Numbered from the stretch's first letter, positions 8,265-62,303 are shown. The stretch is 64,000 nucleotides of DNA from Candidatus Moraniibacteriota bacterium (GCA_027008775.1 JALVDV010000007.1:5797-69796); one strand, 5' to 3'. The notes: generated by a model from the letters alone, not told the origin. Translations and numbers: made by a program.

Positions 8265-8338
8265 AATTTAGAACACAAAGACTGGTCTTTGGTTTTGACT
8301 GAGAAATTAAAATAAATTTAAATATTGATCTTTCTTGA

Positions 8339-8376
8339 TAAAGCAAAATTCCGGCAACGTCCGGAATTTTGCTTTA
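8339..8376 (+). promoter_or_regulatory. perfect 16-bp inverted repeat (taaagcaaaattccgg-caacgt-ccggaattttgcttta) in the argS upstream region
   Basis: Seen directly. It is not followed by a T-run and has no T-box consensus. Confidence 0.35.
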
Positions 8377-8494
8377 TCCGGAGCATTTAGCAAAAGTGAA
8401 TCTTGCAAGCAGATTGATTTTTGGGAAAACGGATGATATATTTGGTTTGTCGTCTTTAAGCGTGTTTGGTGAATTTGTAAAGAAGTAAAAGTTT

Positions 8495-11417: not shown

Positions 11418-11797
11418 TTTTTATGTGGAGAAAATTTTTATTTTTGGTTTGCTATTATAACAGATTAAGAAAAGAAAACAAATTTTTTGTATTAGATGAC
11501 CACTTCTTGGACACTTTAGCACACCTTGAGGCAAATCTTACAAATGACAGATGGCGAATAATTTGGGTGGAGACAATTGATAAAGATTGTGGATAAATTT
11601 GGGTTTGCTTAATTGGTCTGGTTGTAAATTTAAATTGTGATTGAAAGATTCAGTATCCGTTGTTAACTGTCAGCATCAAAAGGGTGAAGAGGACTGAGAA
11701 GATAGAAAGAATCAGGAAAATAGAAGGGGTTAAAAAGTTGGGAATAATGTTTTTTATTTTCTTAATTTTTTAAACTTCATTTTTTCACGGTCGTTTC

Positions 11798-11883
11798 TAT
11801 TATGATATTATCAATAATATCATAATATTTGTTTGTGTTGTTGTTGGGAGTTGTATTATGATATTATCAATAATATCATAATA
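11798..11883. repeat. pair of 30-bp perfect palindromes (tattatgatattat-ca-ataatatcataata) separated by 26 nt. This is copy A of a ~130-bp repeat unit that also occurs at 61570-61700.
   Basis: Seen directly. 14-nt arms with a 2-nt centre. The same downstream flank motif (GTTT..GGGnGGGTA.T.ACTGA.AA) follows both loci. Confidence 0.8.
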
Positions 11884-12249
11884 CTTGTTTAGGGAGGGTA
11901 TTTTTACTGATAATGCTTGTTGGTTAAAATGAGAAGGGGTTCTGTTGTTTGACTGGGGTGTGACATTGTTGGGGGCACTTCTTGATTTTGCTTTTGGGGA
12001 AGAACTAAATTTTTTTGTTACAGTTTGTTGAGCCTGTTGGACAGAATGTTTTTTGCCGACCGGATGTTGAATGGTGTCTTGTTTGTTTTTGTTGTTAGTT
12101 AAAGATAGAGAAGAACAATAAGATAGGGACACTTCGTTTTTTTGTGATTTGATTCACGCCTGGACAAAGAAAAAGAGTTAGTGGGGAAATAAAATAACGA
12201 GTCTTAGAGCGTGTGAAAATATTAAGAGTATAAGTTTAGAAAAATTGTG

Positions 12250-12700
12250 AGATGTTTCACTCTTACTTTGGAGGCAAAAAAGACTACGGAAATTGTTGAG
12301 TTGAATAGAAAAACGGCACAAAACTGTTACAACAAAATTCGTAGAGTGGTAGCAAATCTCAGAAAAGATAGAATTGCCTGAAAGTTGCTTTGGTGGAAAA
12401 AGAAAGAGTAAAGACAATAGAGAAGTAAATGCTGTAGAGGGGATATCTGTTTTGGGGTTAAAAAGAAGAATAGAGAAATTGTATACATAAATTACAAAAG
12501 ACGCCTCAAGAGAAAAGTCTTGGGAATAGTCTAAGATGCGACTGGCAAAGTTTTGCGGATTGAATTAAAGGGGTGGGACGGAATCTTGTTGAAAGTTAGC
12601 ATACCTGGTATTTCTTTGTTAAAAGGATGGTGTTTTGAGGTGCGCTCGGGATATGAGATAAAAAATTGTAGCGTCGTTGAAATAAAAAAGTGAAGATTGT
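12250..12700 (+). pseudogene. decayed IS1595-family (ISXO2-like) transposase remnant, frameshifted and truncated
   Basis: Frame 1 encodes TTEIVELNRKTAQNCYNKIRRVVANL, which resembles the IS1595 N-terminal HTH (..sy.TAW.mlHKIR.am). After a +1 shift comes LPESCFGGKRKSKDNREVNAVEGISVLGLKRRIEKL, which resembles the start of the DDE domain (DEtyfGGK.k..rG...K..V.G..eR.G). Multiple stops, no intact ORF. Confidence 0.45.
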
Positions 12701-12703
12701 TTT

Positions 12704-23065: not shown

Positions 23066-23512
23066 ATGAAATTGAAGAGTAATTCAAGGGGTTTTACGCT
23101 GGTGGAGTTGCTTTTGGTGATCGCCATTATCGGTATTTTGGCAGCAGTTGTTTTCATTGTGATTGGTCCGGCGCGTAAAAAAGCTCGGGTAGCCACTTTC
23201 AAAGAGCATATGGTTGATTTGGTAAAGGCCGGAGCTTCTTGTATAGACAGTGAAGGGATAATACAAGATGGGCAGGCTGATGGTACGCAACCCTTTTGTC
23301 TAAATAGTGCCGGAAATCCAGTTGGTGGTTTAGACAATATTCCAGAGATAAAGGTTTGTAGAGGTGGTTCAGGTGTGATAACGATCAGTGTTCAGAATGG
23401 TGGCAGTGATGATTTTGAGATTACGGCTGATTGCCCAGTAAGTGACACTGCCAATTGTACCGCTGATTGTACTATTGGTGGTTGTACGTTTAGTGATGAA
23501 TGTAATCTATAA
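23066..23512 (+). CDS. type IV major pilin paralog 1
   Basis: Class III signal ...SRGFTLVELLLVIAIIGILAAV (prepilin cleavage G|F, Glu+5). C-terminal Cys pairs. GGAGG RBS. Confidence 0.8.
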   Translation: MKLKSNSRGFTLVELLLVIAIIGILAAVVFIVIGPARKKARVATFKEHMVDLVKAGASCIDSEGIIQDGQADGTQPFCLNSAGNPVGGLDNIPEIKVCRGGSGVITISVQNGGSDDFEITADCPVSDTANCTADCTIGGCTFSDECNL

Positions 23513-23688
23513 TGTTTTAGAAATCGGTTATGGGTTTTTAGGACGGGTTCGTCTTAAAAACTCATATTCCGGTTTTTAGAGTGTTAGTTTTTGTTGTGGC
23601 TTGGGTGGATTTGTTTGGGAAAGGCGTCGCTTTATTGGAGACAGTAAAGTGTTTAGATATAACATCGTATTTATTAAAGCGAAAAAAT

Positions 23689-36232: not shown

Positions 36233-37327
36233 ATGAAGAAAATTACGGAAAAAGAGTGGCGGAGGGCAACAGATTTGTTCTTAAATGAACTAAGCGAGAG
36301 ACAAAGAAAATTAGTTTCTCGCCGTTTTGGTTTACAGAATAAAAAAGCGCGGACATTGGCCGCCATCGGTAGAAGTGAGGGAGTGTCCAGAGAACGTGTC
36401 AGGCAGATTGTGACCGGCGCTTTGAGAAAACTTAAAAAGAAAATAGAAAGAGCCGGAGAGAATGAAGAGAAAAAAGAGTTTTACAAAACGATTCTTGGGA
36501 GAATTGAGGAAGAGGGCGGAGTTATTGGCCGGAATGTTCTTTTGCGAGAAACATTGTCTGATAAGACGACTCTGTCGCGGGCGAAGCGAGCGGGAATGAT
36601 TAGTTTTATTTTAAGTTCTTTGCCCGGTTTGCAATACAAAAAACCTTCCGTTCGTTTTGGTGAGTTGTGGTATTTGCCTCAGGCCAAAGATTTTGTTACT
36701 AAAGTTGATCGTTTTCATAATGATTTGGTTGCTTATTTTGAAAAGCAGCAGAGGCCTTATACTTTTGCCAAGTTGCGAAAGGAATTCGGATCTTATGCAA
36801 AGGCTTATGCAGAAAAAGGAATTAAAAAATTAGAGATTGACAAAAAGAAGCTAGGGTTGCTTTTGCGGGAAAGTTATCTTTTAGGAGAGAATATTTTGGG
36901 GCAATGGGGATTAGCGAAGTGGAAGATTGTTAGGCCGACGGCTGTCAGGGAGAAAGCTTATTTGGTTTTCAAAAAAGAGAGGGAGCCTTTGCATTTTAGA
37001 GCGCTGACGACACGGATTAACAAGTACTGGAGTAGTGGCAGGCGCGCTTTGCCGCAAACGGTGCATAACGCCATTATTAAATATCCGGAGTTTGTGGTGG
37101 TTGATTTGGGGACCTACGGCTTAAAGGAATGGTTGTATGAAGAAAATGATATTCGGCAGAGGTTACTGGATTTTTTTGAGAAAAACAAAAAGGCCTCCAT
37201 TGAGGAATTAGTGAGTTCTTTGAAGAAAACAAAAGAAAGCAGGGTTCGTCTGGAAATCACTTTGCGAGCAATACTGCACAGAGAAAAGATGTTTATTCGC
37301 CGAAATGGTAAATATATGGTAAAATAG
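36233..37327 (+). CDS. DNA-binding protein with an N-terminal sigma-70 region-4 HTH and a C-terminal HARE-HTH-like domain
   Basis: - LSERQRKLVSRRFGL...TLAAIGRSEGVSRERVRQIVTGALRKLKK is sigma70_r4-like.
- EPLHFRALTTRINKYW...LPQTVHNAIIKYPEFVVVDLGTYGLKEW is HARE-HTH-like. Confidence 0.55.
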   Translation: MKKITEKEWRRATDLFLNELSERQRKLVSRRFGLQNKKARTLAAIGRSEGVSRERVRQIVTGALRKLKKKIERAGENEEKKEFYKTILGRIEEEGGVIGRNVLLRETLSDKTTLSRAKRAGMISFILSSLPGLQYKKPSVRFGELWYLPQAKDFVTKVDRFHNDLVAYFEKQQRPYTFAKLRKEFGSYAKAYAEKGIKKLEIDKKKLGLLLRESYLLGENILGQWGLAKWKIVRPTAVREKAYLVFKKEREPLHFRALTTRINKYWSSGRRALPQTVHNAIIKYPEFVVVDLGTYGLKEWLYEENDIRQRLLDFFEKNKKASIEELVSSLKKTKESRVRLEITLRAILHREKMFIRRNGKYMVK

Positions 37328-37500
37328 TCTTGGCGTAGAACTTATCTATGGTTTTCCCTTTCTAATGTTCAGTTAGGCTTTCTGGATGTTATTTTCTATC
37401 TGGTGTTTGAGGCTTCGTTGATTGAAAAAGGAGTCAAACATGTGTCTGAAAATAATATTCAAAAGGCTTGGCGGATAAAGGGTTTGAAATGATGACTCCG
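37317..37500 (+). promoter_or_regulatory. extended -10 (TGgTAAAAT, 37317-37325) plus conserved leader element copy A (~37368-37500)
   Basis: ~80% identical over ~130 nt to 42122-42265 (GGATGTTATTTT..TGGTGTTTGA..GTTGATTGAA..AAGTCAAA..GTCyGAAAATAA..TCAAAAAGCTTG). The minus-strand ORFs covering it are presumed spurious. Confidence 0.5.
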
Positions 37501-37584
37501 AATGAATTGACGACGAGGGCAGTAGGAAACGGAGCGGTATTTTCTCTTGCTTGTCTTGTTTTTTGGAAATTGTCAAAATAAAAT

Positions 37585-38976
37585 ATGATAAAAGAGGAGA
37601 AAGAAAATGTAAAATTAAAACATCTTTGGCAGTTTTTGGCGGGAGGTTCGTTGGTGGTTTGGTTTTTAATGTTTTTTCTTTTTCCGGCAGAGGCAAAGAT
37701 TTTTTGGACGACCATATTTGTGCTTTTCAAAGATTACTGGTGGATAGTTTTGCCTTTTCCGATGTGGGAAATTTATCAATCAATGTGGATGGAACAGGTG
37801 GTGGGGGCTTGGTTGTCCAGTCGGGAATATACGTTATTGGAATTGATTCCTCCACGGGATATTGAGAAAAGTCCCAAGTTAATGGAACATGTTTTTGCCG
37901 GAATAAATGATTATTCCACGCCGAATCGTTTAGAGATTCATTGCGGTTGGCGTGTTTTGCAGCCACGTTGGTCTTTTGAGCTGACCGGTGATGAAGGGAT
38001 GGTCAGATATTTTATTCGTTGCCCGAAGGCCTCCAAGGCGACAGCTGAAGCGCAAGTGTACGCTCATTATCCGGATATAATCATCAAGGAAGTGGAGGAC
38101 TATGTGAAGAAGGCGCCTCACAATATTCCCAATGCTCGTTGGGATATTTGGGGAGCCACTCTAACCTTGGTTAAGCCGGACCCGGTGCCTATTAGGACGT
38201 ACCGACAGTTTCAGGAGGAGGTAACCGGTAAAATGATTGATCCTCTGGCTAATATTGTTGAGGTGATGGGCGCCTTGCCCAAGGGTCAACATCTCTGGTT
38301 TCAAATTTTATTGGAAAGTGAGAAACCACCGAATTGGCACCCCGCCAGCTTGGCCTATATTCAAAGTTTAATTGATGAGCATTTGGGTAAAAAAAATGGA
38401 AAAGAGTTTCCTCTGTTGAGATTTTGGCATGAATTAAAGTTGTTGCCGGGGAACCTTTTGAGCGCTTTGGCGGGCAAAGAATTAGCTACACCACCAAGCA
38501 GTGGAGGAGAAGAAGAGCCGGAGTTTAATATAAATAAACTGCCGCCGGGAGTGCAGGAAAAAATAGAAGCCATCTCGCAAAACATTTCCAAACCCGGTTT
38601 CCGAACAGTGATAAGGTTTATATACTTTGGCACCAGAGATAATTTCAACAAGGCGCTGGGAGTAGCCGGTATTATGGGTCCGATAAAACAGTTGGGAGAC
38701 GTTAATTTAAATGACTTGGTGCCTTCAAATTTAACTAAAACTTTTGCCAATTACTATTTTGATGAAGAGAGGTTGTTACGGAAGAAAAGAAAAATTTATA
38801 ATGATTTTATCTCCCGAGATATGGTTGGGCTTTGGATGATTATGAATACGGAGGAATTGGCCACTCTTTATCACTTCCCAGATATGTCTATCAGAAGTCA
38901 GGCTATTACCAGAGTGGAATCCAGACGGGAAGAAGCTCCCGCCAATTTACCGGTTGATTTGGAAGTTGAAGAATAA
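37585..38976 (+). CDS. hypothetical membrane protein (two N-terminal TM helices, large soluble C-terminal region). First gene of VirD4-like module A.
   Basis: TM1 LWQFLAGGSLVVWFLMFFLF, TM2 IFWTTIFVLFKDYWWIVLPF. No recognised domain. Translationally coupled position upstream of 39015. Confidence 0.5.
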   Translation: MIKEEKENVKLKHLWQFLAGGSLVVWFLMFFLFPAEAKIFWTTIFVLFKDYWWIVLPFPMWEIYQSMWMEQVVGAWLSSREYTLLELIPPRDIEKSPKLMEHVFAGINDYSTPNRLEIHCGWRVLQPRWSFELTGDEGMVRYFIRCPKASKATAEAQVYAHYPDIIIKEVEDYVKKAPHNIPNARWDIWGATLTLVKPDPVPIRTYRQFQEEVTGKMIDPLANIVEVMGALPKGQHLWFQILLESEKPPNWHPASLAYIQSLIDEHLGKKNGKEFPLLRFWHELKLLPGNLLSALAGKELATPPSSGGEEEPEFNINKLPPGVQEKIEAISQNISKPGFRTVIRFIYFGTRDNFNKALGVAGIMGPIKQLGDVNLNDLVPSNLTKTFANYYFDEERLLRKKRKIYNDFISRDMVGLWMIMNTEELATLYHFPDMSIRSQAITRVESRREEAPANLPVDLEVEE

Positions 38977-39014
38977 AAATCCAAACTTAATCAGTTAAGT
39001 AAGCTAAAATAACA

Positions 39015-40973
39015 ATGGTTGAGACAAAAGAAGAAATAAATTTCTTTGCCAAAACCAATTTTCGCAACAAGGAGCGTCCTTTCGGAATAAAAACCGATGA
39101 TCGGCGCAGGCATTTCTATACTCTGGGAAAAACGGGAATGGGTAAGACGAGCATGATTCAGAATATGGCCATTCAGGATATTCGCAGTGGCAAGGGTTTG
39201 GCCATTGTTGATCCGCATGGTGAATTTGCCGAGGAATGTTTGAAGGCCGTGCCGGAAGAAAGAATCAAAGATGTTATTTATTTTAATCCGGCCGATTTGG
39301 AATATCCGATTTCTTTGAATATTTTGGAAAAGGTTGATCCGGAACATAGACATCTGGTTTCTTCCGGTTTGATAGGAATTTTTAAAAAACTTTGGGCTGA
39401 TTCTTGGGGTCCTCGTTTGGAGTATATTTTACGCAATGCCATTTTGGCTTTGTTGTCGCATCCTTCTTCCACTTTATTAGGAATCAATCGTTTGTTGGTT
39501 GACAAACAGTATCGGGAAGAGGTTCTGTCTTACGTTGACGATCCGGTGGTGAGTTCTTTTTGGAAGGATGAATTTTCCAAGTATAACGACCGTTTGTTAA
39601 CAGAGGCTATTTCTCCCATCCAAAATAAAGTTGGTCAGTTCTTGTCAAGCGGTTTGATTAGGAACATTGTGGGGCAAACCAAATCTTCTTTTTCCGTCAG
39701 GGAAGCGATGGATAGCAATAAGATTTTGATTTTAAATCTCTCCAAGGGACGGATTGGAGAGGATAGTAGCGCTTTGCTGGGAGCAATGATGATTACCAAG
39801 ATTCAACTGGCGGCAATGAGTAGAGTTGATATTCCCGAGGCGGAAAGAAAGGATTTCTATCTTTATGTTGATGAGTTCCAGAATTTTGCCACCGAATCTT
39901 TCGCCGGTATTCTTTCAGAAGCCAGAAAATACCGATTGAGTTTGATTTTGGCGCATCAGTTTATGGCTCAGTTGGATGAGTCGGTGATGAATGCCGTTTT
40001 GGGTAATGTGGGAACGATTGTAGCTTTTCGAGTGGGGGCGATGGACGCGGAGATTTTGGAAAAGGAGTTTGAGCCGGTTTTTTATGCCAATGACTTGGTT
40101 AATTTGGACAAGTATAATATTTATCTGAAGCTGATGATTGACGGAGTGGCCACTCGGCCGTTTTCGGCAACTACGTTGATGCCGATAGACACCAGTGATA
40201 CAGCTGAGAATCTGGAGAAAGTAATAGAAATGTCTCGCCGGCAATATGCTCACGATCGGGCGACGGTGGAACGGCGCATTATGGAATGGAGCGGGATGCG
40301 CAGCGGGGCGGTTAGCAAGAATATTGAATCTTTAGCCAAAAACAGAATACGTGATTTGGTGAAAGGAAGCGCAAATGTTTCGGCGCAGAAGTCGGTAAAC
40401 GATGATCAAAATAGAAACAAAAAGGGAAAAGGAAAAGGACAAGCAAAAAAAGGCGCGGGAAAAGCGAAAGTAACGAAAACCGATGCTTTGATAAATGAAC
40501 TGGGAATTGGTTTGGGAGAAGAGACAGTTGGCTCTTCGGAGGGAGATCTTGAAGTGGGGCAATCGGAAGTGTCTCCGATAAATGCGGGAAGAGAAGAGGG
40601 AACTATATCAGGAGAGCCGAAAGCAAACAAAAAGAAAAAGGCAAAACCAGCGGAAGAAAAACAACAAACAAGGATAAAAGTTAATTGCTCCGGTTGCGGT
40701 ATAGAAACAGAGGTGAATTTTCAGCCGGATGGAGTGCGGCCGGTTTTTTGTCCGGAATGTTTGAAGGAGTACCGTCGTCAACAGGCCAAGTTGAAACAAG
40801 AGATGGAAATGGCCAACTCAGCGTCGGCGCAGATAAATGAGTCGGGTCAAACAAAAGATAAATCAAACGTTAATAGGCCGGTGTTGACGAGAAAAAAAGA
40901 AGCAAAGAAGACGTCGGTGGATACCGATGAAGTCAAAAGATTAATTCAGGAAGCTATTGATGGAAAAAAGTAA
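39015..40973 (+). CDS. soluble VirD4/TraD/TrwB-like coupling-protein ATPase with a C-terminal Lys/Gly-rich tail and zinc ribbon
   Basis: - Walker A TLGKTGMGKTS
- DPHGE box
- Walker B YVDEFQNF
- TrwB-like LILAHQFMAQL...GNVGTIVAFRV
- no TM segment
- C-terminus KKGKGKGQAKKGAGKAK... then CSGCG-x17-RPVFCPEC. Confidence 0.7.
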   Translation: MVETKEEINFFAKTNFRNKERPFGIKTDDRRRHFYTLGKTGMGKTSMIQNMAIQDIRSGKGLAIVDPHGEFAEECLKAVPEERIKDVIYFNPADLEYPISLNILEKVDPEHRHLVSSGLIGIFKKLWADSWGPRLEYILRNAILALLSHPSSTLLGINRLLVDKQYREEVLSYVDDPVVSSFWKDEFSKYNDRLLTEAISPIQNKVGQFLSSGLIRNIVGQTKSSFSVREAMDSNKILILNLSKGRIGEDSSALLGAMMITKIQLAAMSRVDIPEAERKDFYLYVDEFQNFATESFAGILSEARKYRLSLILAHQFMAQLDESVMNAVLGNVGTIVAFRVGAMDAEILEKEFEPVFYANDLVNLDKYNIYLKLMIDGVATRPFSATTLMPIDTSDTAENLEKVIEMSRRQYAHDRATVERRIMEWSGMRSGAVSKNIESLAKNRIRDLVKGSANVSAQKSVNDDQNRNKKGKGKGQAKKGAGKAKVTKTDALINELGIGLGEETVGSSEGDLEVGQSEVSPINAGREEGTISGEPKANKKKKAKPAEEKQQTRIKVNCSGCGIETEVNFQPDGVRPVFCPECLKEYRRQQAKLKQEMEMANSASAQINESGQTKDKSNVNRPVLTRKKEAKKTSVDTDEVKRLIQEAIDGKK

Positions 40974-42021
40974 AAGTGTTTTAGTTGGTTTGAGCGGAGG
41001 GGTTGATTCCTTGGTGACAGCTCATTTGTTACAAGAAAGCGGTTATAGGGTGAAGACTGTTTTTTTGAAACTTAGGGATGACAAGGCCGAAGAAGCGAGG
41101 GCAAAAATGGCAGCCGATTCTTTGGGTTTGAAATTGGGTGTTTTTGATTTACGAAAAGAGTTCGAAAAAACCGTTCGCTCTGATTTTGTAAAAAAATATC
41201 AAAAAGGTTTGACTCCCAATCCGTGTGTCTTTTGCAATCCGGAAATCAAGTTTGCTTTTTTGCAAAAAATGGCTGATAGATTGGATTGCAAGAAAATAGC
41301 CACCGGACATTATGCCAAGGTGGAGTGCCGGCCGGAAAGTGAGGAGAAAGATAAAAAGTGCTTGTTGATAAAAGCTAAAGATAAATCCAAGGACCAGTCT
41401 TACTTTCTTTACAGGTTAAGCGCAAAGCAGTTGCGGAAGATTTTGTTTCCCTTGGGCGGTTTGAAAAAAGCGGAAGTTAAAAAAATTGCTCAGAAAAATA
41501 ATCTACCTTTACCAAAGGCGGAGTCTCAAGATGCTTGTTTTTTGGTTGGTTCCAACTTAGATGATTTTTTGCGTAACAATTTGTCAAGCAATCTTTTTAC
41601 TCCAGGAGAGATTGTGGATGAAAAGGGTGAAAAAGTCGGGACCCACCGGGGGCTGTTGTCTTACACAATCGGGCAAAGAAAGGGGATAGATGTTGGGGGA
41701 ACGGGTCCTTTTTATGTCAAGGGTAAGGATTTTAAGAAAAATGTTTTGTTGGTGACACGTCGTCGGGATGACTTGCTTTCTGATAAAGTTGTGTTTAGGC
41801 AAACAAATTGGCTGGCCGGTTTGCCTGAAAAGGATAAACAATATCATGTTAAAATCAGATATCAGATGAAACCGGTGAGGGCGACTGTGCAGAGAAAGGG
41901 TAGTCATTGGGAAGCAGTGGCGCAGGAGGGAGACGCCTTTAGTATGGTTACACCCGGGCAGTCATTGGTGGTTTATGATGGTGATGTGGTTATTGGGGGA
42001 GGAGTGATAGAATTTGTTTAA
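40957..42021 (+). CDS. mnmA: tRNA-specific 2-thiouridylase MnmA
   Basis: PP-loop VLVGLSGGVDSLV, catalytic cysteines (NPCVFCN, ...QDACF), ~354 aa. Confidence 0.9.
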   Translation: MMEKSKSVLVGLSGGVDSLVTAHLLQESGYRVKTVFLKLRDDKAEEARAKMAADSLGLKLGVFDLRKEFEKTVRSDFVKKYQKGLTPNPCVFCNPEIKFAFLQKMADRLDCKKIATGHYAKVECRPESEEKDKKCLLIKAKDKSKDQSYFLYRLSAKQLRKILFPLGGLKKAEVKKIAQKNNLPLPKAESQDACFLVGSNLDDFLRNNLSSNLFTPGEIVDEKGEKVGTHRGLLSYTIGQRKGIDVGGTGPFYVKGKDFKKNVLLVTRRRDDLLSDKVVFRQTNWLAGLPEKDKQYHVKIRYQMKPVRATVQRKGSHWEAVAQEGDAFSMVTPGQSLVVYDGDVVIGGGVIEFV

Positions 42022-42077
42022 AGTTTTAATTTTTTGAGAATGTCATTGTAAAATTTCACCAAATAGTCAAAGTGGTG

Positions 42078-42265
42078 TATAATTTTTGTTGAAGAATTCA
42101 TCGGGTTCTCCTTTTTCAATATTTAGTCAAGCTTTTTGGATGTTATTTTTTACTTGGTGTTTGACACTTTGTTGATTGAAGAATAAGTCAAATATATGTC
42201 CGAAAATAACACTCAAAAAGCTTGAGAGACAAAGAGTTTAGGAGGGTAGCTCTAAGTGAATTATG
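42078..42265 (+). promoter_or_regulatory. -10 TATAAT (42078-42083) plus conserved leader element copy B (~42122-42265)
   Basis: Paralogous to 37368-37500. Confidence 0.5.
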
Positions 42266-42302
42266 GAAGTTTTGTTGGTTGATTCTGTTTTAAATTAAAA
42301 TT

Positions 42303-42611
42303 ATGAATAATGAGACAAATATCAGGGAACTGAGAAATCTTTTAACAGCTCTCAATGTTAAATTGGTTGATTTGGAGGCCGATGAGAAAAGATTGAAAGT
42401 GGAAAAGGAAAAATTGGCTTTGGAAATTAGACGAAAAAAGAAGGAGAGGCAGAGATTGGAATTGTTTATCAGGGAGTTAAAAAACCGAGAAAAAGAAATT
42501 GAAAAAAAGTTTTTTGAATTCTCGGCGGATAAAAAACGTCTTTTAAAGAAGAGGGAGGAATTATTGGCCAAAATGAGATTGCTTGAAAGTAAATCTGATA
42601 ATAATTTTTAA
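42303..42611 (+). CDS. small coiled-coil protein. First gene of VirD4-like module B.
   Basis: 102 aa, heptad-rich K/E sequence. Preferred over antisense ORF 42290..42571. No SD. Confidence 0.35.
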   Translation: MNNETNIRELRNLLTALNVKLVDLEADEKRLKVEKEKLALEIRRKKKERQRLELFIRELKNREKEIEKKFFEFSADKKRLLKKREELLAKMRLLESKSDNNF

Positions 42612-42624
42612 TTAGTTCTGGGCA

Positions 42625-46361
<3,737 letters not shown>

Positions 46362-46540
46362 ATAAAGGTTGGAAAATGTTTTAAGGGGAAACTGAAGGTG
46401 GTAAATTTGCAAGCAGGTCGTTATTGGTTTTGGTTGCTTTCCTTGATAAAGGCTCAATCTTTGTGGACGTGAGAATTGAGTCTTTGCTTTCTTATTGTTG
46501 GATGGGCAAAAAAGGCGGATAATATCATTTCTTAAACAAA

Positions 46541-57381: not shown

Positions 57382-57406
57382 CTTTCTCACTTTTTACCCT
57401 AGCAAG

Positions 57407-57446
57407 AACAGGTCCTTAATTTCGGGACCTGTTTTTGTTTTCTGTT
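57407..57446 (+). terminator. intrinsic terminator aacaggucc-uuaauuucg-ggaccuguu plus U-run after tuf
   Basis: 9-bp stem then tttgttttctg. A second hairpin+T-run lies at ~57481-57510 (aaatccct-ataata-agggattt-ttttttt). Confidence 0.65.
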
Positions 57447-57524
57447 TATAAACTGTTGATAATTTTTTCTGAAATTTTGAAAAATCCCTATAATAAGGGA
57501 TTTTTTTATGGTGTAGAGAGAGAT

Positions 57525-57553
57525 TTGACTGGTGTTGTGAGGTGGGGTATAAT
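57525..57553 (+). promoter_or_regulatory. dcw-cluster promoter TTGACT-17nt-TATAAT upstream of mraZ
   Basis: Seen directly. ~147-nt leader. Confidence 0.45.
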
Positions 57554-58198: not shown

Positions 58199-59176
58199 AT
58201 GGCTGATTCAGAAAAAGAGTTTCATAGAACAGTTTTGTTAAAAGAGACCATTGAAGCGCTGAACATTAAAAAAGGAGATGTAATCATTGATGCCACCTTG
58301 GGGGCAGGGGGACATGCCTTGGAGATTTTGCGACTGATTGGCGAAAGAGGGAAATTGATTGCCTTTGATGTTGACAAAAAAGCGGTGGATGATTTTAAAA
58401 AAAGAATTACCGAGAATTTTCCCGAGCTAAGGAATAGATTAATTCCGGTGGTCGATAATTTTAAGAATATAAAGAAAGTAGTGAAGAGATTGCAGGCAGA
58501 AGGCAGGATTAAAAGGGATAAGGTTAACGGTGTTCTGGCTGATCTGGGTTGGCGAATAGAACAGGTTGCAGATGAGCGTTACGGTATGAGTTTTAGAAAG
58601 GAGATGCCTTTAAAGATGAATTTCAGTGGGGATGATAAGGTTCTGACGGCGGAAAAAGTTGTCAATGAATGGTCGGAGGAAGAATTGAGAAATATTTTTC
58701 AGTCATTGGGAGAGGAAAGAGAAGCTGGTCGGATAGCTAAAAAGATTGTTGAGAGTCGGCAAAAGGAGCGAATTGTGACGACGACGCAATTGGCGGATTT
58801 GATTACGGATGCCAAAAAAAATAGGAATGGTCGTATTCACCCGGCTACCAAGGTTTTTCAAGCGCTGAGAATAGTGGTGAATGCGGAGTTGTCAAATCTG
58901 GAGTTATTTTTAGAAGGAGCTACCGATGTTTTGGAAAGTGAGGGGAGATTGGTTGTAATCTCTTTTCACTCTCTGGAGGATCGGACGGTTAAAAAGTTCT
59001 TTCGGGCAAAGGCGAGGGGATGTGTTTGTCCGGAAGAACTTCCCGTCTGTGTTTGCGGACAGTCTAATCAATTTATCATTCTGCAAAAAAAAGGAGTGAG
59101 GCCGAGCTTAGCTGAATTGAAGGAGAATCCCAGAGCGCGAAGCGCGGTTTTGCGAATATTAAAAAAAAGAAAATAA
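58199..59176 (+). CDS. rsmH: 16S rRNA (cytosine1402-N4)-methyltransferase RsmH
   Basis: DATLGAGGHA SAM motif, ADLGWR (DLGVSS equivalent), ~325 aa. Confidence 0.9.
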   Translation: MADSEKEFHRTVLLKETIEALNIKKGDVIIDATLGAGGHALEILRLIGERGKLIAFDVDKKAVDDFKKRITENFPELRNRLIPVVDNFKNIKKVVKRLQAEGRIKRDKVNGVLADLGWRIEQVADERYGMSFRKEMPLKMNFSGDDKVLTAEKVVNEWSEEELRNIFQSLGEEREAGRIAKKIVESRQKERIVTTTQLADLITDAKKNRNGRIHPATKVFQALRIVVNAELSNLELFLEGATDVLESEGRLVVISFHSLEDRTVKKFFRAKARGCVCPEELPVCVCGQSNQFIILQKKGVRPSLAELKENPRARSAVLRILKKRK

Positions 59177-61448: not shown

Positions 61449-61569
61449 TTTGTCAGTTTCGTTTTGGTTAGGAATGTTTTCAGTCTGTTCAGATTTTTTG
61501 TTAATGAATTTTTTGTTAGTGAGCCAAGGAAGTTTTAGATAAAATTACTTACTCATGGAGATGTCAACT

Positions 61570-61653
61570 TATTATGATATTATTGATAATATCATAATAT
61601 ATTTGTTATCTGTGGTGGGGTGGTATTATGATATTATCAATAATATCATAATA
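61570..61653. repeat. second pair of the 30-bp palindrome (centre tg in the first copy, ca in the second), separated by 24 nt. This is copy B of the ~130-bp repeat unit.
   Basis: Seen directly. Same palindrome arms as at 11798-11883, and a similar G-rich downstream flank. Confidence 0.8.
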
Positions 61654-62303
61654 CCCGAAAAGTTTGTTGCTGGGGGGGGTAGTGACTGAAAAGATGAGGA
61701 TTATTTTTATTCCTGCCTTTTGATGACGGTAGTCGATCTATTGATATTAAAGTTCTTGTTTACTATCTATAACCATAGTTTGTTTCGGTAGCTAAGGCCA
61801 ATAAGCTGAGTGCGATTTCTTTTGTTTATGGTTGGTTTTGAATTTTTTCTATTGTTTGTTACCTGTGGGATTTTTTAAATACGTTGACTATTTGAAAAGT
61901 TGCTCTCTTGTGTTTGACCCATCAAGGATTCTCTTTCTAAATTTTTTGCCCATCAAACTTTCCGGGCATTATTTTCAGATTTATATTTGATTTCTTCTTT
62001 AAGCAACAAAGTGTCAAATATCAGGCAGAGAACAACATCCAGAAAGCTTGACTGAATATTGGAAAAGAAAAATCCTAAATGAGTTTATTGGTAAAGTGTC
62101 GAGTAAATGATTAGTAGGAGGTGGTGCCGTTGAGGTTCAGACAATGTTGAGAGATGAGGTAGGGATTTCAGAGAGGTTTGGGGTTGTTTGTATTGCGATT
62201 ATTTTGTACACTTTGTTTATCAGAAGAAATTGTTATACCAGAATGATTAGCCCACAGTTTTGTTTTGAATATTTTTGGAGGGGATAAGTTTTAGTTTAAT
62301 TGT

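Follow-up and report, generated by a model that had tools for sequence, protein, structure and literature searches.

Small palindromic repeats that lie within messages are well known in proteobacteria and pneumococci. Among the closest described systems, ERIC sequences are transcribed with their neighbouring genes and have an orientation-dependent effect on mRNA stability (PMC2229807, citing De Gregorio 2005 and Wilson & Sharp 2006). The YPAL elements of Yersinia are 168 bp long, and their mobility was recognized from filled versus empty sites (PMC2229807). Correia elements of Neisseria can lie between a native promoter and its gene (e.g., at mtrCDE), in which case they are part of the mRNA and their hairpin is bound or cut by RNase III (PMC2649163). 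Here, we describe a repeat found in a 64,000-nt stretch of DNA from Candidatus Moraniibacteriota bacterium (GCA_027008775.1 JALVDV010000007.1:5797-69796), analysed over its whole length and hereafter called the window, with positions counted from its first letter. We focus on the copy at 42093-42263 (copy B). With moderate confidence, we take copy B to be a dispersed, mobile, non-coding palindromic repeat of the ERIC/YPAL/Correia type that places a hairpin at the 5' end of an mRNA, where it would affect the fate of the message. The repeats make up a new family within a known class of elements, one that has hardly been described in this phylum.

Three copies of the repeat occur in the window, and the length of the unit ranges from 171 to 173 nt:

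37337..37509, + strand: copy A, beginning 11 nt after an extended -10 box
42093..42263, + strand: copy B (171 nt), beginning 9 nt after a -10 hexamer and ending 39 nt before the ATG at 42303
61915..62087, - strand: copy C, recognized from its inverted repeats, covariance model R2, and its fold

The bounds of copy B were set by alignment and by comparison with empty sites (see below). Copies A and B are 75-80% identical, with a MAFFT mean column identity of 74% over the whole intergenic stretch and ~80% in the core. A repeat search pairs 37350-37508 with 42104-42262 (repeat family D3), and the same search reports copy C as inverted repeats I1 and I2, at ~61932-62085. Covariance models score copies A and B at 181-184 bits (E 1e-35 to 1e-40). 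When model R2 was run over the whole window with filters off, exactly three copies were recovered, at 183.6, 183.6, and 169.4 bits (E 1e-37 to 1e-40). Of these, copy B scored 183.6 bits (E 2.7e-40), and the match to copy C spans 61904-62102 on the minus strand (169.4 bits). There is no fourth copy in the window: besides the copies' own reverse strands, everything in this filters-off search scored <=19 bits. An earlier sequence-only reading of this DNA had called copy B a paralog of copy A, as the alignment, repeat family D3, and the covariance models all bear out. It had placed the element at 42122-42265, an interval that takes in the core hairpin and the 3' tail and omits the first ~30 nt of the unit. 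Copy C was missing from that reading. It sits in an 855-nt gap free of open reading frames (ORFs), 61449-62303, between a PBP2/FtsI-like gene and a MurF-like gene, and is opposite in orientation to both (they are on the + strand). Copy C lacks both a downstream ORF and a -10 box at the usual distance.

Each copy forms one long nested hairpin of 60 pairs, arranged in four nested helices. In copy B, the parts are as follows:

42095..42104, + strand: 5' arm of the outer helix, a terminal inverted repeat (AATTCATCGG), pairing with 42251-42262
42105..42112, + strand: 5' arm of helix P0 (GTTCTCCT), whose partner is the AGGAG-containing 42240-42247
42124..42150, + strand: 5' arm of the main stem P1-P2 (27 positions), pairing with 42202-42228
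42157..42195, + strand: apical hairpin P3, with arms 42157-42170 and 42182-42195
42202..42228, + strand: 3' arm of the main stem P1-P2, from the fold and the alignment
42240..42247, + strand: 3' arm of helix P0 (AGGAGGGT), Shine-Dalgarno-like
42251..42262, + strand: 3' arm of the outer helix, i.e., helix 1 (TCTAAGTGAATT)

The minimum free energy of copy B is -51.7 kcal/mol on the sense strand versus -35.7 kcal/mol on the antisense strand, and each of the four nested helices appears in this fold. The corresponding values for the full units are -48.6 versus -23.3 kcal/mol for copy A and -48.7 versus -31.9 kcal/mol for copy C. In folds of 148-149 nt, the three window copies reach -44.8, -41.8, and -33.4 kcal/mol on the sense strand, compared with -20.7, -32.3, and -21.3 kcal/mol on the antisense strand. 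The sense-strand z-scores of these three copies, from single-sequence folds, are -5.0, -4.6, and -2.4.

Conservation of the structure was evaluated using a MAFFT alignment of 10 copies from four organisms, with 500 shuffles as the reference. In this alignment, 88% of the cells are paired, versus 38-50% if the partners are slid by one to three columns. Changes on both sides of a pair are seen in 16/60 pairs, compared with 10.1±2.1 in the shuffles (only 2/500 reach 16), and the covariation score of 0.261, versus 0.224 in the shuffles, was equalled by 0/500. The ends of the element form terminal inverted repeats (5' AACTTATCTAGG / 3' CCTGAATGAGTT) that are ~12 nt long and weakly conserved; the outer helix that they make up has 11 pairs, with 81% of the cells paired and two pairs altered on both sides. 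P0 (helix 2; arms in copy B UUCUCCUU / AGGAGGGU) has eight pairs, 86% paired and three altered on both sides, and is also predicted independently by RNAalifold. The main stem P1-P2 (helix 3) is a duplex of 25-27 bp that accounts for 27 pairs in the alignment (92% paired, eight altered on both sides), and P3 (helix 4) adds 14 pairs (86% paired). Between P2 and P3 is a conserved 6+6-nt internal loop (42151-42156 / 42196-42201). The best-conserved region of the family is the central part that contains this loop and P3, where the alignment has invariant columns. The AGGAG of P0 is not the ribosome-binding site of the downstream gene (which encodes a coiled-coil protein) because it lies 56 nt ahead of its ATG.

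Transitions tend to preserve G-U pairing. Between the window and a strain with a 99%-identical DUF8128 protein, copy A differs by 25 transitions and 5 transversions, and on the sense strand we counted 84 G.U pairs versus 29 A.C mismatches. It should be noted that the GC skew of the + strand is extremely strong and uniform in the window (+0.20 to +0.38 in all 4-kb bins, even across minus-strand genes), that related contigs show the same skew, and that the sense strand of the element is the G-rich strand in every copy except C. Copy C keeps the asymmetry between sense and antisense folds even though its sense strand is the C-rich one; thus, the asymmetry is a property of the family consensus and not of local mutation bias.

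Copy B lies in the gap 42022-42302, between an MnmA-like gene (40957-42021) and a coiled-coil ORF (42303-42611). The genes and the promoter-like site that surround copies A and B are as follows:

37585-38976: DUF8128 membrane protein, 463 aa, downstream from copy A
39015-40973: TrwB-like ATPase, also downstream from copy A
42055..42083, + strand: promoter-like site of copy B, TTCACC-17-TATAAT by consensus scan, with the -10 hexamer at 42078-42083, outside the repeat
42303..42611, + strand: first gene after copy B, a 102-aa coiled-coil-like protein (Pfam scan, codon-position pattern)
42625-44163: TrwB/VirD4-like ATPase after the coiled-coil gene
44163-46361: NAD-dependent DNA ligase (LigA)

The extended -10 box of copy A (TGGTAAAAT, 37317-37325) overlaps the stop codon of the upstream Sigma70_r4/HARE-HTH gene. 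The element begins 9-11 nt past the -10 hexamer in all five complete gene-proximal copies (A and B, plus D1, D2, and E from other genomes). A TGn-extended -10 box is present in D1, D2, E, and copy A; copy B instead has a -35 box at 17-nt spacing. The distance from the element to the ATG varies (23-75 nt). For the copies that have a downstream gene (A, B, D1, D2, E, and F), the orientation of the element is the same as that of the gene in 6/6 cases. The gene downstream from D1 encodes a secreted 179-aa coiled-coil protein, that of D2 a DUF389 membrane protein, that of E an 85-aa protein, and that of F an alpha/beta hydrolase. Overall, the six downstream genes or operons are mutually unrelated and have no common functional theme.

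Several parts of the sequence-only reading stand up to these comparisons. The position in a 5' leader is upheld, given that copy B lies between a predicted sigma-70-like promoter and the first ORF, and conservation of the leader element is seen in its secondary structure, together with the better fold on the sense strand. The first ORF does encode a coiled-coil-like protein, with only a sub-threshold Pfam match to HAP1_N (a coiled-coil family); the identity of this gene between strains is.981/.990/.903 by codon position, such that substitutions are concentrated at third positions of the sense frame, as in coding sequence. Also proposed was that antisense ORFs in the region are probably artefacts of the leaders. 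This is incorrect in the case of 42290..42571(-), which has no overlap with the element and is a shadow of the coiled-coil gene. The antisense ORFs 37373..37696(-) and 37434..37730(-) do overlap copy A; they are open in the strain with 99% amino acid identity, but protein-like conservation is lacking.

As an aside on the neighbourhood, the gene order Sigma70_r4/HARE-HTH, DUF8128, TrwB/VirD4-like ATPase, MnmA, ~100-aa coiled-coil protein, and second TrwB-like ATPase covers 36233-46361, with LigA following in the window. The first TrwB/VirD4-like ATPase of the cluster has a C-terminal treble-clef zinc finger. Between the window and the strain on contig L161 (99% amino acid identity), the ligA-dnaG gap (46362-46540) is only 68% identical, a divergence far beyond that of any gene or element copy.

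Outside of the window, two copies (D1 and D2, 760 nt apart) were found on L027, from a metagenome-assembled genome (MAG) of Patescibacteria, and one copy each on L147 and L102, contigs from sister metagenomes; protein look-ups added strain variants (L161-L164 and L173). There are several dispersed copies per genome, three in the 64-kb window and two within 1 kb in L027/L173. Copies A and D1 are 83% identical, D1 and D2 are 87% identical, and copies from different genomes are 75-86% identical. For comparison, the DUF8128 protein is ~62% identical between the window and L158, which belongs to the same assembly as L027, the carrier of D1 and D2. Between strains, copy B is 96% and copy A 85% identical, and third codon positions are 81-92% identical. 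A DNA pattern scan of genome contigs returned 31 stretches, and of the two that were checked, only L027 was real. The same type of scan of metagenomes returned at least 118 stretches, among which BLAST confirmed L102 and L147 only. In the viral contigs scanned, there were two matches, neither of them at a locus supported by the covariance model.

The DUF389 locus, where D1 and D2 reside, allows filled and empty sites to be compared. L173, whose DUF389 protein is 100% identical to that of L027, comes from the same organism and carries D1 and D2. L175-177 (DUF389 97% identical) and L178/179 (95% identical) have the same gene order, i.e., a COLFI-domain protein, the 179-aa protein, and DUF389, without the element and with gaps of only 56 and 39 nt. 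Both sites thus carry the element in L027/L173, whereas L175-179 and L167 lack it; the flanks are collinear and 83-98% identical. Between L027 and L175, the flanking and intervening genes are 87-98% identical at the DNA level. Because the intervening gene does not stand out in identity, these are two separate indels rather than one swapped block. At each, the difference between the filled and empty alleles is ~170-190 nt that lie between a pre-existing promoter and the start codon, in DNA that is otherwise ~90% identical.

At site 2, the promoter and flank, TGTTATAATAAGGTTAGTTA, are the same in filled and empty alleles. In the empty allele, TGTTATAATAAGGTTAGTTA is followed directly by ATTTTTTTACTAATTGAAATG; in the filled allele, it is followed by the element, GAAC...GAATGAGTTA, and then by TTAAATATTTTTTACTAATTGAAATG. 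Because the -10 box is identical in the empty allele, the promoter predates the element and was not supplied by it. At site 1, the empty alleles retain AGAATTCTAG, which resembles the 5' end of the element, and the filled allele contains two duplicated flank-like segments (~18 nt) and a short upstream ORF. The lineage with filled sites falls within a set of empty ones, of which L175 is the nearest, followed by L178 and L167 and then by L168-L172; gain is thus more parsimonious than loss. Incidentally, a strong AGGAG-AUG upstream ORF of 10 codons is present downstream from D1 (L027:1540-1600), with a stop codon that overlaps the start codon of the 179-aa gene (ATGTTAA).

The sites orthologous to those in the window could also be compared. 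The conserved gene order of the DUF8128 cluster occurs in at least five other genomes, in which DUF8128 has 59-67% amino acid identity. The coiled-coil/ATPase order of the window is also found in L150, L153, and L161, and the cluster recurs in L157 and L165. Even with filters off, neither the DUF8128 nor the coiled-coil sites of L150/151, L153-158, and L165/166 have the element; the DUF389 loci of L167-172 and L175-179 also lack it. In L153-L158, the gap ahead of DUF8128 is 56 nt. In L150, the two orthologous gaps share a long hairpin of a different kind (L150:6198-6523 and L150:11097-11422), of the type GGGACTGTTTCCAA...TTGGAAACAGTCCC. The one ahead of DUF8128 begins 11 nt past the same -10 box that overlaps the upstream stop codon. 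With filters off, there is no detectable homology between the L150 hairpins and the family described here, and the short motifs AACTT and TTCAGTTA look alike by eye.

Given the repeat family, the conserved fold, promoter adjacency, gene-matched orientation, and filled and empty sites, we interpret copy B as a mobile repeat of the known kind that came to lie in the leader of the operon encoding the coiled-coil protein and TrwB-like ATPase. In the scheme that we propose, the unit would be gained (or possibly lost) whole, within a narrow group of Patescibacteria, and the landing place would be between an existing -10 box and a start codon. Because it is placed there, it would be transcribed as the extreme 5' end of the mRNA. 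The RNA is predicted to fold into the outer helix, the 8-bp P0, the 25-27-bp stem, the internal loop, and the apical stem. This hairpin may obstruct nucleases that require a free 5' end, or RNase III may act on its long duplex; it is the 25-27-bp duplex and the extreme 5' position that suggest 5'-end protection or RNase III processing. By analogy with the known systems, the hairpin probably has an effect on how stable the mRNA is or on its processing by RNase III. The 36 window proteins scanned, which represent part of the window's genes, include no RNase III. The scheme would involve no sensing of a specific signal for the copy B operon, and the repeat does not look like an operon-specific regulator or a dedicated sensor.

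Comparison with known repeats helps to place the family. The short length (under ~200-300 bp), lack of coding capacity, terminal inverted repeats, dispersal, and filled and empty sites are all listed among the features of repeats that resemble miniature inverted-repeat transposable elements (MITEs) (Table 1, PMC2229807). ERIC/IRU sequences, which occur in enterobacteria and vibrios, are 127-bp imperfect palindromes that, like the element, are non-coding intergenic DNA of 100-200 nt that is transcribed; in both, the central inverted repeat is best conserved, and the sequence is shared across species at differing locations. However, ERIC is from another phylum, no sequence similarity would be expected, and the element is longer (~170 nt); the likeness is one of functional analogy only. 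In addition, ERIC lies between the genes of operons, whereas the gene-proximal copies of the element come directly after a -10 box. YPAL (also RU-2) resembles the element in size, in having termini without TA, and in the variable or unclear duplications of its insertion sites (PMC2229807). It differs in that it is not A+T-rich, its inverted repeats are internal, and no promoter adjacency is reported for it. Correia elements (NEMIS or CREE) share with the element small size, terminal inverted repeats, a frequent position 5' of genes, and strain-variable presence (PMC2649163). Those elements have terminal repeats of 24-26 bp, duplicate TA, are able to create promoters, and may contain an IHF site, whereas in the element the terminal repeats are ~12 nt, no TA duplication is seen, and the promoter was already there. 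REP/BIME and IS200/IS605-derived elements are less alike, given that they consist of hairpins of 20-40 nt with a conserved target or guide tetranucleotide and a linked Y1 transposase, whereas the hairpin of the element is 100-170 nt long and the left flanks of its copies share no motif. As regards function, stem-loops at the very 5' terminus, such as that of the Escherichia coli ompA leader, protect mRNA from decay that requires a free 5' end. The element is like leaders of this kind in that its hairpin would lie within a few nucleotides of the transcript 5' end, which fits the 9-11-nt offset from the -10 box. It differs from them in being a dispersed repeat of 170 nt rather than short and gene-specific.

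A number of observations weigh against reading copy B as a mobile repeat that acts at the mRNA level. No transposase or longer element with matching ends was found in the window plus 179 loci, where the terminal motif occurs in the known copies only; this is a weak negative. Conservation is highest at the centre of the hairpin and lowest at the termini, the opposite of what classic MITEs show. As to a target-site duplication, (G)TTA at both junctions of site 2 is compatible with a short one but does not prove it, and the empty allele differs by a further 6 nt; site 1 is rearranged. Copies within a genome are no closer to each other than they are to copies in other genomes; there is thus no sign of a recent burst, and some selection on the sequence is implied. 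In conservation between strains, copy B lies above third codon positions (copy A does not). The excess of G.U pairs is weak as a sign of selection at the RNA level because it is confounded by the GC skew and the orientation of the copies. Finally, only seven independent copies are known. As both large DNA scans were swamped by chance matches, the census is poor, and the family may be wider.

One extension of the mobile-repeat reading would make the element a mobile 5'-leader cassette that targets transcription start sites. This derives from the constant 9-11-nt offset from the -10 box (approximately +3 to +5 of the transcript), combined with the variable distance to the ATG, as well as from the different hairpin of L150 that is found at the same offset from an orthologous promoter. 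Insertion might be directed to the open promoter complex, or it may be that only those hairpins located at the exact 5' end are kept as mRNA caps. We consider a cassette of this sort rather unlikely. The constant offset is potentially the out-of-ordinary feature of the family, if it reflects targeting or a strict requirement for a 5' hairpin, and start-site cassettes, if real, would provide reduced genomes with a means to rewire mRNA 5' ends using interchangeable hairpin modules.

Alternatively, the element could be a dedicated cis-regulatory leader RNA, with a site for a protein or ligand that defines a regulon that genes join and leave by gain and loss of the leader. The covariation-supported structure, the conservation of the 6+6 loop and central stem across genera, the fixed position after the promoter, and the sense orientation in 6/6 copies would all fit such a leader, as would the identity of cross-genome copies (75-86%, compared with ~62% for the DUF8128 protein) and that of copy B between strains (96%, compared with 81-92% for third codon positions). 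There is some room for it because the centre is conserved, copies within genomes are not closer, and copy B exceeds third positions. However, copy A changes at an approximately neutral rate (85%), none of the other genomes examined retains the element at the orthologous genes, and its presence varies between genomes that are ~90% identical in flanking DNA. Moreover, the downstream genes lack a common theme and copy C lacks both promoter and gene. In addition, the structure is a single extended hairpin with no junction, terminator, or sequestered start site. A terminator or attenuator was considered and rejected, as there is no U-tract or terminator-like site after the element. In looking for an expression platform, we found no terminator, and the start codon, 23-75 nt past the element, is unpaired. 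At the gathering threshold, Rfam 15 has one match in the window, a tRNA, and none at the element. We thus regard a dedicated leader as unlikely. The narrower idea implied by the sequence-only reading, that copies A and B are dedicated leaders of two paralogous modules that respond to one signal, is not supported given the third, gene-less copy, the unrelated genes elsewhere, the absence from orthologous sites, and the variation between strains. Another possibility is a purely selfish element that acts at the DNA level. Here, the hairpin would be recognized as single-stranded DNA by a Y1/HUH enzyme (IS200/IS605- or RAYT-type), the strand bias would stem from replication, and there would be no role in mRNA. 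All copies except C have their sense strand on the G-rich, presumably leading, strand, so gene orientation cannot be separated from replication orientation. No clear target-site duplication is seen, conservation of the hairpin rather than the termini fits enzymes that recognize hairpins, and a Y1_Tnp gene is present on the related contig L153. Yet no copy of this family was found in the L153 genome, and copy C is on the other strand inside the same skew domain. Further, at ~100-170 nt the hairpin far exceeds those at the ends of IS200/IS605 or in REP, the copies share no 4-5-nt target motif on their left side, and a fixed spacing of 9-11 nt from the -10 box, when the distance to the ATG varies, is hard to account for unless transcription is involved. 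On balance, this explanation also seems to us unlikely.

Two further possibilities concern the product of the element. It could be an independent small RNA, or be cut from the leader as one, and act in trans, with copy C as a stand-alone locus. Copy C does lack a downstream ORF, and the hairpin is stable and conserved; at E<=10, the only Rfam matches are to models of microRNA precursor hairpins (21-30 bits versus thresholds of 56-100), which reflects shape only. No terminator follows any of the copies, however, copy C has no -10 box at the usual distance, and 6/7 copies continue straight into mRNA, so a small RNA is very improbable. A search for tRNA and tmRNA found none at the element sites, and phage or plasmid origin was sought with no match. 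Finally, the element might encode a small protein, in the sense frame (...LDVIFYLMFD..ENNIQKA) or in the antisense ORFs. One sense frame, the sole long one, is open through the core in most copies, and, as noted above, both antisense ORFs at copy A are open in a second strain. However, this frame has an in-frame stop codon in copy B and no start codon in copy C, there is no ribosome-binding site, and the antisense products diverge strongly between strains that have 99% identity in the neighbouring protein. Variability by codon position in the element is.148/.096/.126, with no third-position excess, and it is base pairing that accounts for the pattern of conservation. The element is non-coding, and we reject a small protein from either strand as scarcely credible. 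A leader mini-ORF (the AGGAG of the tail, ~10 nt, then AUG) was also tried; the ORF after it is 2-15 codons long, without a conserved product, and the idea was dropped because both the AGGAG and the AUG are inside helices.

If copy B is indeed a mobile repeat at an mRNA 5' end, hairpin modules located just past promoters would explain part of the variation in expression between very close strains of these tiny, uncultured bacteria, and the genes affected would include conserved TrwB-like ATPase modules and surface-protein genes. For annotation, there is a warning in that repeats of this type mimic "conserved leaders" and yield spurious antisense ORFs. In a full-text literature search, MITEs and Patescibacteria were mentioned together in only two papers, and neither term appears in the titles or abstracts of those papers.

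Other repeats and hairpins are evident nearby. A 30-nt palindrome (consensus TATTATGATATTATCAATAATATCATAATA) has four copies in the window, at 11798-11827, 11854-11883, 61570-61599, and 61624-61653, with arms that are 93-100% complementary. These form two pairs, the second of which is ~300 nt from copy C. The pairs are located in the window's two longest gaps without ORFs (11418-12703 and 61449-62303), which share 88 nt at 86% identity. The latter gap is very G-poor on the minus strand and is an apparent repeat-collecting site inside a cell-division gene cluster. The strongest folding outliers in the window are very stable intergenic hairpins at 23446-23595, 57391-57540, 58921-59070, and 8311-8460, which may be terminators or palindromic elements. 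Related genomes have many other long, near-perfect palindromic intergenic elements, several of which recur between loci and genomes (L158:10051-10240, which equals L157:15278-15467, as well as L157:6386-6741, L153:14824-14994, L167:17566-17780, and L168:16053-16263). Among these, one has a z-score of -9.2, one 356-nt gap folds at -160 kcal/mol, and in L153 the Y1_Tnp gene adjoins one such element. The family studied here is one of many families of palindromic intergenic repeats in these genomes. Lastly, at 244-355, the window has a tandem repeat with a period of 14 nt (GAGCAGAGAACAGT / GAGCAGGGAGCAGA), inside the ORF 60-458 (repeat family D1 of the window, distinct from the copy D1 of L027).

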